Part shown: positions 1 through 3,199 of the stretch, in pieces
How positions within the stretch are numbered: position 1 is the stretch's first letter
Layout of the letters: each line of letters opens with the position of its first letter
DNA from: Promethearchaeota archaeon
GTDB taxonomy: Archaea; Asgardarchaeota; Lokiarchaeia; Sigyniarchaeales; SOKP01
Reading direction: 5' to 3'
Assembly (NCBI GenBank): GCA_030599585.1
Contig: JAUVNS010000007.1
Coordinates: 160,001 to 224,000 of the forward strand
Length of the DNA stretch: 64,000 nt
Program-made: the position numbers and the translations under genes
Notes under the pieces: generated by a model
Told to the model about the DNA's origin: nothing
Database searches by the model: none
Seen by the model: the letters and a program-made list of their open reading frames with translations, nothing else

Positions 1-19
1 CTTCTTCTTCATCATTTTT

Positions 20-805
20 TTATCCTTTTCTATTTATTATTTTTATAATTCCTACTACACTTAAAACAACAATCCCTACAATTATAGGTGGGGCAAATAT
101 AGGTTGAATTCCCTGTAATTCCTTAACGATGCAAAAATCTCCCCCGTATTTGATTAAATAAGATTCTAGTACTCCCGTCATAGTATATTTAATCGTTAAT
201 GTAAAAATTTCTAAGGTAGGATAATCCAACGTAAGGGTTATCCCTTTCCCATTTACCACCGCATTAATATTTATTTCTGAATATGGATATGGATATGGAT
301 ATTCAAAAAAGTAGTTCTGCTCTAAATAATAAATAAAAGAATCCCAATCCAAATCAGCAGGAATAAAGTATGGACCATAATAAATAGAGTTAAGATAGAG
401 GTTTGGTTCTAAATCTTGATTATAATCCTCTCTATAAGTATAAATCGAAATACTCTCTATAGACTCGCTCTTAGTCCATTCTCCTCCGCTATATTCTGTA
501 GTTTGAAAAAAGTTAACTTCAAATTCCACCTCTGAATAACTCGAATCATAAAGATCTGGAATTTTTTCAATATCGTTAACGATAATCTTAACACCCTCAA
601 TGTCAATATCATCCATAAAAATCTGATTTGTATCAGCTACTAATTTTTGATAATTTAACATGTCCACGCCTATTCTCCATGTAAATTCATCTCCTTCTTG
701 AATCTTGATATAATCATTATAATCTCTTGAAGCTATACTAAAATTTATAATTGAAATAAAAAAGAGGAGTAAAACAAAGCAAGTAAGGTTATTTTTATGT
801 TTCAT
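20..805 (-). CDS. Secreted/surface protein with N-terminal signal peptide and C-terminal membrane anchor (hypothetical)
   Basis: Basic + hydrophobic N-terminus (MKHKNNLTCFVLLLFFISII), acidic Tyr-rich body, C-terminal TM followed by basic tail (IIVGIVVLSVVGIIKIINRKG). Overlaps the upstream gene by 11 nt. Confidence 0.7.
   Translation of the reverse strand: MKHKNNLTCFVLLLFFISIINFSIASRDYNDYIKIQEGDEFTWRIGVDMLNYQKLVADTNQIFMDDIDIEGVKIIVNDIEKIPDLYDSSYSEVEFEVNFFQTTEYSGGEWTKSESIESISIYTYREDYNQDLEPNLYLNSIYYGPYFIPADLDWDSFIYYLEQNYFFEYPYPYPYSEININAVVNGKGITLTLDYPTLEIFTLTIKYTMTGVLESYLIKYGGDFCIVKELQGIQPIFAPPIIVGIVVLSVVGIIKIINRKG
281..302. repeat. Short hexamer tandem repeat (ATATGG)x3+ encoding YPYPYPY
   Basis: atatggatatggatatggatat seen directly; in-frame within ORF 20..805. 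Confidence 0.7.
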
Positions 806-1718
806 TATAAAATCCTCGTTTTTTAATTTTTATTTTATAAATAATGTAGCCTATGACAAGACCCGCAAGATCAGAAAGGTTGAAAACTATATATGGCATA
901 TAAAGGAAAGTATAAATTGCCCATAAACCAAACTTGAATAAAATAATAAACCCTAATAATATTTTCCCATTAATTCTAATAGGATAGATAATTCTCCAAT
1001 TTTTAGAGGGATATACAAAAACAGTATAAGAAATAATTCCTATTATCCCACTTGAGGCAAATCCCGTACAAAAAATTACCATACCATTAATAGGATATTG
1101 TTGAATTATTGAAACTCTTAGTAAAATATATAAAAATGCGGAAAGAAGAACACTTAAGAGGAAAATACTTATAAATAATTTCTTTCCAAATACATTCTCA
1201 GCTTTTCTTATAATATCATAATATACAAAGAGGATGATGATGGTAAATGCTAAACCAATATAATCACGGATAAAGAAAAAATCAAAAAGGATTATAGAAG
1301 AAGAGGAAATAAATGGAGAAGTTAAAATTGTAATTAATGAAAAAGGCAAATTAGAAATGCTAAAAGACAATTCCTGCGGAAAAAATATGAATGCAAAAGA
1401 AAGTACTGTTATTAATATGATTAATGAGTTTGTTAATAAGGCTTTCTCGGACTTACTTGGTATTTCTCTTTGGAATTTTTTTTGATTATTATATCTTTTT
1501 TGGTAGCTTCTTCTTTCACGCAATTGATAATTGGATCGACTAGATGAAGGATATTTTATAGAAGGTCTAACTTTTGGAACTACTGGTGTTTGGATTATTA
1601 TAAAAGTACACTCGTGGTTCTCTGGTAAGCGGTGTTCCAAACAATGTTTTCCACCGCAATACTTGCATTTAAATGGGAATTTATCTATTTTAACTCCACA
1701 AAACTCACAATAAGTCAA
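795..1718 (-). CDS. AN1-type zinc finger fused to rhomboid-superfamily membrane domain (probably inactive, Derlin-like)
   Basis: CEFC..FKCKYCGGKHCLEHRLPENHEC is an AN1 zinc finger, followed by about 6 TM helices. TM4 reads GFASSG and TM6 reads SDLAGLVIG, with Asp where rhomboids have the catalytic His. Confidence 0.75.
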   Translation of the reverse strand: MTYCEFCGVKIDKFPFKCKYCGGKHCLEHRLPENHECTFIIIQTPVVPKVRPSIKYPSSSRSNYQLRERRSYQKRYNNQKKFQREIPSKSEKALLTNSLIILITVLSFAFIFFPQELSFSISNLPFSLITILTSPFISSSSIILFDFFFIRDYIGLAFTIIILFVYYDIIRKAENVFGKKLFISIFLLSVLLSAFLYILLRVSIIQQYPINGMVIFCTGFASSGIIGIISYTVFVYPSKNWRIIYPIRINGKILLGFIILFKFGLWAIYTFLYMPYIVFNLSDLAGLVIGYIIYKIKIKKRGFYNET

Positions 1719-1939
1719 ACTTTTTCACTATGTAAATTTTTGACTTTTATCTTTTTAAGTATATTATCTATTTATATTCAATTCATTTATAAATCTTTTT
1801 CTTGAATTTAATTTTCTATCTCTAAGCTTATTTACCCCTTCTAATCCCATAATAAATAAGCAGAACGTCTAACATTTTAAAGAATCGAAACTTTCTAATA
1901 AATAATCATAAAAATATTTGAAAGAAATAGTGTAATAGT

Positions 1940-3199
1940 TTGCCCGACTCAAAATTTTATATAGATTTGGATAGTGAATATTGTGCTCATAATTATCATC
2001 CTATACCTGTTGTGATTTCTAAAGCAGAAGGCGTGTGGGTTTACGATCCAGAAGGAAATAAATATTTAGATTGCTTATCTGCCTATTCCTCTCAAAATGC
2101 GGGTCATTGTCATCCAGAAATTGTAAAAGCGTTAAAAGAACAAGCCGATAAAGTTACTTTAACGTCTCGTGCTTTTTATAACGATGTGATGGGTCCTTTT
2201 TTAAAAAAACTATGTGAAATAGTAGGACCGCATATCAACGATCCAAAAAATTCAGGAATAATGGCTCTGCCAATGAACACTGGAACCGAAGCAGTGTCAA
2301 CTGGTCTGAAAGTTGCTAGAGCTTGGGGTTATATTAAGAAGAAAATTCCTAAAAACGAAGCAAAAATAATTATCTGTAGAGATAATTTTCACGGGAGATC
2401 AATCACTATTGTGGGTTTTAGTACGGATATTGAGGCTGTAAGATACTACGGTAATTTTGGTCCTTACACTCCCGGTTTTGTTACGATCCCTTATGGGGAT
2501 GCTGATGAATTAGAAAATACTATTTTAGAAATCGGTGCTGAAAATGTAGCGGCGTTTCTATTCGAACCTATTCAAGGAGAAGCAGGGGTTAATGTACCTC
2601 CAGAAGGTTTCCTTAGAAAAGTTAGAGAAATATGCACAAAATACAATGTTCTAATGATCGCTGACGAGATTCAAACGGGTTTCGGAAGAACAGGAGAATT
2701 ATTTGCTTGTGATCACGAAAGTGTAAAACCTGACGCGATTCTACTTGGTAAAGCGTTAGGTGGAGGCGTTTACCCTGTTTCTGCCGTAGTTACTACAAGA
2801 GACATTATTGGTCCTGACGTAATTAAACCAGGAACTCACGGAAGCACATTTGGTGGAAATCCTTTAGCTTCGGCTGTCGCTCTGAAATCCTTAGAAATTC
2901 ATATTGACGATCATTTAGCGCAGCGGTCAAAAGAATTTGGAGCCTATTTCTTGGATGGTCTTAGTAAAATAGCAGAAAAGAAAACTATCGTACCTATTAA
3001 AGAAGTTAGAGGGAAAGGATTGTTGATGGCGATTGAGTTTGAATCCGACGCAAGACACATAGTAGAATTATTTAAAGATAATGGAGTTTTAGCAAAACAT
3101 ACTCATTCTACAACTATTCGTTTTGCACCTCCGCTAATAATTACTAAGGATCAAATCGATTGGGCTCTTAAAATTATCGAAGATGTTCTAATAGTTTAA
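1940..3199 (+). CDS. rocD: Ornithine--oxo-acid aminotransferase (class III PLP)
   Basis: AHNYHPIPVV, YLDCLSAYS, FEPIQGEAG, ADEIQTGFGRTG, LGKALGGG (PLP Lys), HGSTFGGNPL. Confidence 0.92.
   Translation: MPDSKFYIDLDSEYCAHNYHPIPVVISKAEGVWVYDPEGNKYLDCLSAYSSQNAGHCHPEIVKALKEQADKVTLTSRAFYNDVMGPFLKKLCEIVGPHINDPKNSGIMALPMNTGTEAVSTGLKVARAWGYIKKKIPKNEAKIIICRDNFHGRSITIVGFSTDIEAVRYYGNFGPYTPGFVTIPYGDADELENTILEIGAENVAAFLFEPIQGEAGVNVPPEGFLRKVREICTKYNVLMIADEIQTGFGRTGELFACDHESVKPDAILLGKALGGGVYPVSAVVTTRDIIGPDVIKPGTHGSTFGGNPLASAVALKSLEIHIDDHLAQRSKEFGAYFLDGLSKIAEKKTIVPIKEVRGKGLLMAIEFESDARHIVELFKDNGVLAKHTHSTTIRFAPPLIITKDQIDWALKIIEDVLIV

Follow-up and report, generated by a model that had tools for sequence, protein, structure and literature searches.

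A predicted rhomboid pseudoprotease with an AN1 zinc finger in Asgard archaea, and its young paralogue in a putative surface-protein operon

Rhomboid pseudoproteases, among them the Derlins, the iRhoms, TMEM115 and UBAC2, have been treated as a eukaryotic theme. A 2025 review of the rhomboid superfamily makes no mention of archaea (PMC12615303). The same review describes two features of the Derlins: the WR motif in loop L1, which is needed for client binding, and a C-terminal cytosolic tail with an SHP box, which recruits Cdc48/p97 (PMC12615303). In haloarchaea an AN1 zinc finger joined to a rhomboid protease has been described, as in RhoII of Haloferax volcanii (PMC4343526, PMC9263693); neither this protease architecture nor the rhomboid pseudoprotease as a kind of protein is new. 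Here we describe a gene on a 64,000-nucleotide (nt) stretch of DNA from a Promethearchaeota archaeon (hereafter the window; contig JAUVNS010000007.1, positions 160,001 to 224,000, forward strand) whose predicted product joins an AN1 finger to a rhomboid-fold membrane domain that has lost its catalytic residues. It belongs to an Asgard-wide family of such proteins, and in the literature we found no description of archaeal or prokaryotic dead rhomboids of this family, nor of Asgard AN1-rhomboids. We propose, with moderate confidence, that the window protein is a non-catalytic rhomboid-fold pseudoprotease derived from archaeal AN1-rhomboids, a paralogue standing apart from the site-2 protease (S2P) pairing of its family and lying in a surface-protein operon, and that it serves as a receptor that holds client membrane proteins without cutting them.

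A sequence-only reading of this DNA had seen in the gene an AN1 finger, a basic linker and a rhomboid-like body of about six transmembrane (TM) helices, and this layout was borne out. The AN1 finger matches Pfam PF01428 (E 1.9e-9; 37.9 bits vs a cut-off of 27.9), which was the only match in the Pfam scan of the protein; the NCBIfam scan gave no match. The zinc ligands C4, C7, C18, C21, C26, H29, H35 and C37 do not vary across the aligned family and fit the zf-AN1 ligand pattern, C-X2-C-X(9-12)-C-X(1-2)-C-X4-C-X2-H-X5-H-X-C. The family AN1 profile also matches solved AN1 fingers in the PDB, among them those of Cuz1 (5ij4) and ZFAND5 (7qxw, 9bui). The basic (positive-inside) linker that comes next places the finger, by prediction, in the cytosol; residues 40-95 hold 14 Lys and Arg vs 3 Asp and Glu. 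The TTG start of the gene is credible because homologues, about 40 of them, share the same M-[TS]-Y-C-E beginning. Short plus-strand open reading frames (ORFs) that overlap the gene were without support, and an Rfam scan of window positions 1-3000 found no RNA family.

The rhomboid body was modelled with AlphaFold2 from a 36-sequence alignment (predicted local distance difference test score, pLDDT, 76; predicted template modelling score, pTM, 0.64). The model has six TM helices, with TM1 at residues 94-112 and TM2 at 150-177. In structural comparisons with VIA-align it matched E. coli GlpG with a Z of 14.6 (root-mean-square deviation 3.0 Å, 165 of 181 residues), human Derlin-1 with a Z of 12.7, iRhom1 with 11.9 and yeast Der1 with 10.6. 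Z values above 10 were reserved to rhomboid-superfamily chains and one designed rhomboid-like fold, and unrelated chains scored 5.1 or less. When the model was used as a Foldseek query, the top 30 matches were all GlpG. The rhomboid fold of the modelled protein can be regarded as secure. At E<=1 the window protein does not match the Pfam Rhomboid family, PF01694, which 12 of the 36 family members do match at that threshold, and so the assignment rests on the fold, the family profile and the PF01694-positive relatives.

For the active site, 80 genomic loci were aligned, and the column counts given here come from an alignment of 56 Asgard membrane domains. The column of the catalytic His holds Glu in 34 and Asp in 22 of the homologues, the window protein having Asp283. 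In the column of the catalytic Ser there are 40 Trp, 6 Ser, 3 Thr, 3 Phe, 2 Tyr, 1 Ile and 1 Ala, and the TM2 His and Asn (HxxxN, oxyanion hole) are absent from every Asgard member with Asp or Glu in the His column (D/E type). The motifs picked out earlier, GFASSG in TM4 and SDLAGLVIGY in TM6, with Asp in the place of the catalytic His and the GxxxG kept, were located at residues 219-224 and 282-291. By alignment it is Ser222, not Ser223, that stands in the nucleophile column, where orthologues 80-94% identical have Thr. An alternative Ser-His dyad was looked for and none was found, because the membrane domain of the window protein contains no His; nor does the 56-sequence alignment have a conserved His column. 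The exchange of His for an acidic residue, found in all 56 members, is not a decay private to one genome. What has been kept is structural: Glu174 and Gly178 at the end of TM2, and GxxxG in TM6. Loss of catalytic residues while structural motifs stay is the usual signature of a pseudoenzyme. With the His, Ser and TM2 His/Asn columns all lost in the family, the earlier designation as a rhomboid pseudoprotease stands, and the window protein is, as judged from these residues, a catalytically dead rhomboid-fold protein.

A protein that still cuts within the membrane by unconventional residues, for example Ser223-Gly224 in a shifted register together with Asp283, would be in keeping with the A-[ST]-S-G that the paralogue clade retains in TM4, with the conservation of Ser223-Gly224 among copies 80-94% identical, and with the G-L-A-S-G-A of a few family members. 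Such activity is very improbable, given a membrane domain devoid of His, the loss of the TM2 oxyanion residues and the predominance of Trp at the nucleophile position; further, we know of no intramembrane protease with a Ser-Asp mechanism.

To which rhomboids the family belongs is indicated by its relatives. Active AN1-rhomboids of Halobacteria, Hadarchaeota, Archaeoglobi, ANME-2, Aenigmatarchaeota and Nanohaloarchaea keep H..HxxxN in TM2, GASG in TM4 and AHL.G in TM6. In a maximum-likelihood tree (IQ-TREE, LG+C20, 79 rows), the 59 dead Asgard forms, 56 of the D/E type and three with Gln (Q type), make a single clade (SH-aLRT 100, stem 1.99). This clade nests among the active AN1-rhomboids of Halobacteria, Hadarchaeota, Archaeoglobi, Aenigmatarchaeota and Nanohaloarchaea, and the two ordinary rhomboids of the genome studied here fall well apart from it. 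The Q type (L060:6001-7023, L066 and L079), sister to the D/E type, has Gln where the catalytic His would be and no longer has the Ser; the first of these loci is from the cultured strain Promethearchaeum syntrophicum MK-D1, which puts the family within experimental reach. Searching 1.84 billion representative proteins with the membrane-domain profile gave 514 proteins at E<=1e-3, the next-best relatives of the family being ordinary rhomboids. Among the best 150 of the 514 matches, a Pfam scan that covered the 110 more distant proteins found PF01694 in 95, AN1 in 36 and, in addition, DER1 in 10. In the two of these 10 that were inspected, the DER1 match was the weaker, secondary one, on proteins with intact HHN, GASG and AHLGG; these were active rhomboids of bacterial type, and DER1 matches among distant relatives were dropped as a lead to Derlins. 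Some of the more distant AN1 dead rhomboids, for example P0084 and P0114, scored higher with DUF1751 (PF08551), a family of eukaryotic integral membrane proteins, than with Rhomboid (35.1 vs 28.9 and 31.9 vs 24.4 bits); active bacterial rhomboids cross-match DUF1751 too, and these scores may reflect similarity at the level of the clan alone.

The earlier description of the protein as Derlin-like did not survive these comparisons. The DER1 hidden Markov model (HMM; PF04511) matched none of the 36 family members and nothing in the 4.85-Mb genome at E<=1. Family profiles run against PDB sequences retrieved only AN1 fingers and GlpG, though chains of Der1 and Derlin-1 were included. At the positions aligned with the WR motif of loop L1 the window protein has I-T and the family [HYW]-T, never Arg. 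There is no C-terminal SHP tail, the protein ending about 6 residues past its last helix (277-301 of 307) and the family about 10 past TM6. The GxxxG of TM6 is present, as G286-L-V-I-G290 in the window protein and as G-G-I-L-G in the core family. The DER1 HMM, the PDB profiles, the missing WR and SHP elements and the phylogeny together speak against membership of the Derlins. From the comparison with Der1 and Derlin on one side and GlpG on the other, the structural likeness to Derlin-1 remains, and GlpG is the closer by both structure and sequence. Since the dead clade lies among archaeal AN1-rhomboids and DER1 match, WR motif and SHP tail are all missing, the protein, on this evidence, became a pseudoprotease by independent loss within the RhoII-type archaeal lineage and is a homologue of Derlins at the superfamily level only. 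A specific evolutionary link to the Derlins is not supported.

The core copy of the family has a conserved neighbour. In 50 of the 51 Asgard loci with upstream sequence, it lies directly downstream, on the same strand, of a gene for an AN1 finger fused to Peptidase_M50 (AN1-S2P, with HExxH), at a median gap of 168 nt, and the pair is part of a conserved block that includes an AdoMet synthetase gene, the AN1-S2P and AN1-pseudo-rhomboid genes, and those of a HypB/CobW-type GTPase and LSm. The lone exception is the orthologue of the window gene, L001, from the metagenome-assembled genome (MAG) ABR02. So constant a neighbour suggests that the core copy acts together with the AN1-S2P protease. The core pair of the present genome, on contig 32 (G000:C32:80452-82504; L085:691-2755), consists of an AN1-S2P of 326 amino acids (aa), with HEFGH, and a pseudo-rhomboid of 310 aa. 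Contig 28 (G000:C28:79133-79990; L084:766-1623) has a third paralogue of the dead AN1-rhomboids, 285 aa long and on a very long branch, with G-L-A-S-G-G in TM4 and Asp in the His column. Ubiquitin-like and E2 genes (C28:99420-101489) lie about 20 kb from this paralogue and are not adjacent to it. Two further AN1 proteins are a 376-aa product of contig 20 (G000:C20:27606-28736; L086:1492-2622), with an AN1 finger, a TM helix, an ectodomain of about 200 aa and a C-terminal TM helix, and a 278-aa product of contig 8 (G000:C8:14200-15036; L088:781-1617), in which the finger precedes a multi-TM body of no recognised family. AN1-finger membrane proteins in this genome thus number six: three dead rhomboids, the S2P fusion, and the contig-20 and contig-8 fusions. 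By this predicted census the genome uses the AN1 finger repeatedly as a cytosolic module of membrane proteins, and the three paralogues indicate a dead-rhomboid family that is still diversifying.

The sequence-only reading had gone further and taken the protein for a single-chain adaptor of an early endoplasmic-reticulum-associated degradation (ERAD) pathway. As a Derlin-type dislocation factor, it would thin the membrane and hand clients through its AN1 finger to Cdc48/PAN and the 20S proteasome. The AN1 profile does match the fingers of Cdc48-associated Cuz1 and of ZFAND5, the genome encodes 5-6 CDC48_N proteins as well as ubiquitin-like proteins and E2 enzymes, the modelled structure matches Derlin-1 strongly, and eukaryotic dead rhomboids act in quality control (PMC12615303). 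Against this are the failure of the DER1 HMM, the lack of the WR motif and of an SHP-bearing tail, and a PDB profile search that finds GlpG as the only rhomboid. In addition, no Cdc48, PAN, proteasome or ubiquitin gene adjoins the window, core or contig-28 copies examined, and the linker, which would have to hold the binding motif, is the least conserved and fastest-evolving part of the protein. With neither context nor motifs to support it, and with an S2P (core copy) or surface proteins (window copy) as neighbours, an adaptor of this kind is unlikely, and a link of the window protein to Cdc48 or the proteasome is a possibility. For the family as a whole, we give still less credence to the view that Asgard AN1 dead rhomboids recruit Cdc48/PAN and 20S to extract and dispose of single-pass membrane proteins, as an ERAD-like system older than eukaryotes; were it true, the Derlin solution could descend from that system, or archaea could have invented theirs independently. 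The interest of the family is that a dead rhomboid spread across the Asgard archaea carries, in each case, the kind of finger with which eukaryotic proteins work around Cdc48 and the proteasome, and so offers a concrete protein for asking whether ERAD-type quality control of membrane proteins predates the endoplasmic reticulum. Much of the excitement would come from a Derlin link, and it is this evolutionary link that the data do not support.

The window copy has other neighbours. Directly downstream of it are two genes, ORF2 and ORF3 (Table 1), whose products are predicted to be lineage-specific, type-I single-pass surface proteins anchored at the C-terminus. ORF3 starts with a signal peptide and continues into a large ectodomain; at its C-terminus is a TM anchor, before which stands I-P-G-F. 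This C-terminus, with its I-P-G-F, TM helix and basic tail, resembles the PGF-CTERM signal of archaeosortases, though no NCBIfam PGF-CTERM model matched. In a search of 5.8 billion clusters ORF2 had five homologues, all 82-95% identical and all from the same narrow clade, and ORF2 was found only beside the window paralogue; a contig size of 7,679 bp is recorded both for one ORF2 homologue and for one copy of the paralogue. ORF2 showed no similarity to the AN1-ectodomain protein of contig 20 (E 0.3), and the ESM Atlas held no usable match to ORF3.

Table 1. Positions in the window of the pseudo-rhomboid gene, its parts and the neighbouring elements
Feature	Position	Strand	Remarks
AN1-finger pseudo-rhomboid gene	795..1718	-	307 aa; TTG start at 1718, stop 795-797
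AN1 zinc finger	1602..1709	-	residues 4-39; all eight Cys/His ligands present
Basic linker	1446..1601	-	residues 40-91; weakly conserved; partly disordered, predicted helix 62-84
Six-TM rhomboid-fold domain	816..1445	-	residues 92-301; from structure matches and predicted helices
TM4 motif GFASSG	1047..1064	-	residues 219-224; Ser222 (1053-1055) in the catalytic-Ser column
TM6 motif D283-L-A-G286-L-V-I-G290	849..872	-	Asp283 (870-872) in the catalytic-His column; GxxxG kept
ORF2, 261 aa	20..805	-	start overlaps the pseudo-rhomboid stop by 11 nt; N-terminal signal/TM helix, C-terminal TM anchor
ORF3, 466 aa	1..15, then L090:6616-8001 left of the window	-	ATG at 15, 4 nt after the ORF2 stop
AT-rich intergenic region	1719..1939	.	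upstream of the pseudo-rhomboid gene, divergent from rocD, within the ~94%-identity block

The three genes lie in a block of about 3.6 kb that begins about 1.59 kb to the left of the window (G000:C26:158411-160000; L090:6411-8001), ends at window position 1990 and has a low G+C content of about 26-30%. Over this block the DNA is about 94% identical to L001, the non-coding segment between the pseudo-rhomboid gene and rocD included; the syntenic genes that flank it are 60-82% identical to their counterparts there. The rate of synonymous substitution (dS) is 0.10-0.12 inside the block vs 1.0-1.5 in rocD and the genes for carbamate kinase, OTC and an FAD oxidoreductase. The break-points lie within the flanking genes, rocD and that of a DMT-RAM transporter, some 50-60 nt from their 5' ends. 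Given the high identity and low dS of the block next to diverged flanks, the simplest reading would be a recent allelic (recombinational) exchange of the three-gene cassette between two well-diverged species.

The pseudo-rhomboid of this cassette differs strongly from the core copy of its own genome, to which it is 35% identical, and it sits on a stem of 1.95 substitutions per site inside the family tree. Of 24 other genomes of the genus, one has a close orthologue (87% identity); where the remaining genomes have a match, the copies are at most 43% identical. In the window copy the Pro that almost always precedes the acidic residue has changed, as has one Gly of the LP[DE]LGG motif. Measured against the L001 orthologue, the ratio of nonsynonymous to synonymous substitution (dN/dS) is 0.30 for the AN1 finger, 0.49 for the membrane domain, 1.9 for the linker and 0.61 for the whole pseudo-rhomboid, and 0.45 for ORF2, figures that the low dS within the block (0.10) makes noisy and inflated; the flanking genes have 0.04-0.08 and the core copy 0.21-0.29. 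From its intact reading frame in at least five variants at 80-94% identity, and from the ratios of its two folded domains, the gene is judged to be maintained. We take it to be a recent, fast-evolving, lineage-specific paralogue of the Asgard-wide dead-rhomboid family.

These same data could come from a relaxed, decaying duplicate that has no function of its own and is on its way to a pseudogene. The long stem, the restriction to 2 of the 25 species sampled in the genus, ratios for the whole protein and the linker that exceed those of the flanks and of the core copy, and the altered Pro and Gly would all be expected of it. A decaying gene would be harder to reconcile with an uninterrupted frame in at least five variants, with zinc ligands, E174, G178 and GxxxG all in place, and with dN/dS below 1 in both folded domains. 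The gene is also translationally coupled to ORF2, the three-gene block is unusually conserved between two species, and the dN/dS values are inflated by the small dS. We therefore think it improbable that the window copy is simply decaying.

If the window protein is a client receptor that does not cut, as we propose, the rhomboid scaffold, with its Glu174/Gly178 motif and TM6 GxxxG, would still form a laterally open membrane cavity that binds TM helices, and the membrane would be thinned where binding takes place. Lining the cavity would be the invariant acidic residue, and in most members also Trp, instead of a Ser-His dyad. TM anchors of clients would be held there uncut, and the likeliest clients of the window copy would be the co-encoded ORF2 and ORF3, because they share a tight operon with it. 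The cytosolic AN1 finger may couple the complex to a putative soluble partner for assembly, stabilisation or turnover. This would be a logic like that of iRhom and ADAM17, or of Dfm1, arrived at independently. The proposal builds on what the analyses above show: a conserved rhomboid fold stripped of its catalytic residues, descent from archaeal AN1-rhomboids, the set of paralogues and the arrangement of the operon. Several points weigh against it. We infer client binding from the operon structure only; ORF2 and ORF3 are candidate clients, and the soluble partner of the finger is a putative one; co-transcription of the pseudo-rhomboid, ORF2 and ORF3 is itself suggested only by the spacing of the genes. 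Pfam and NCBIfam gave no credible domain for ORF2 or ORF3, and the structure prediction for ORF2 was unusable (pLDDT 32). Further, the paralogue is rare in its genus, and its whole-gene and linker dN/dS values point to weak constraint or fast change.

The window copy could instead be a regulatory or substrate-presenting partner of the AN1-S2P from contig 32, as the core copy may be, with ORF2 and ORF3 as the substrates of that protease. Adjacency of the core family to AN1-S2P in nearly all loci, the AN1 module common to pseudo-rhomboid and S2P, and the single-pass type of ORF2 and ORF3, which is the type that intramembrane proteases cut, speak for such a partnership. Its weakness is that the window copy lies away from the S2P neighbourhood and that its own AN1 finger and linker have diverged, and we consider it doubtful. 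The locus is a case in which one copy of a dead rhomboid has taken up a new place, in a small operon of surface proteins that seems to pass from species to species, and the operon supplies natural candidate clients for experiments.

Among known systems, the nearest relatives by sequence are rhomboids of the type of H. volcanii RhoII (HVO_0727), which share the N-terminal AN1 finger, the linker and the six-TM core. Proteins of the RhoII type keep H..HxxxN, GASG and AHL.G, and these have been lost in all 56 D/E-type Asgard members. The Asgard core copy is of the same family as the window copy, with the same order of domains and an acidic residue for the His; it stands beside S2P, whereas the window copy, with its low identity to it and its narrow distribution, is in the surface-protein operon. 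With the Derlins (Der1, Dfm1, Derlin-1/2/3) the window protein shares a dead rhomboid fold, the GxxxG of TM6 and a cytosolic extension that could recruit partners. It differs from them in having no DER1 match, WR motif or SHP tail, in having an N-terminal AN1 finger as its cytosolic module, and in its ancestry, which lies with archaeal proteases, GlpG being closer to it by structure and sequence. The iRhoms, which are specific to eukaryotes, are likewise dead rhomboids with a cytosolic N-terminal region, and iRhom1 is among the structural matches. iRhom1 and iRhom2, with ADAM17, bind the TM helix of a single-pass type-I client, a likeness to the window protein that we infer from operon structure only. 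Between TM1 and TM2 the iRhoms have a large luminal iRhom homology domain, and they have a seventh TM helix; the window protein has about 37 residues between TM1 and TM2 and six TM helices. Finally, YqgP (GluP) of Bacillus subtilis is reported to be an FtsH adaptor (Began and colleagues, 2020, cited in PMC9263693). It passes membrane proteins on to a second protease. YqgP differs from the window protein in its catalytic activity, in the kind of N-terminal domain and in having FtsH rather than S2P as its partner, but it is a prokaryotic rhomboid with a cytosolic N-terminal domain and provides a precedent for an adaptor role that is independent of cleavage.

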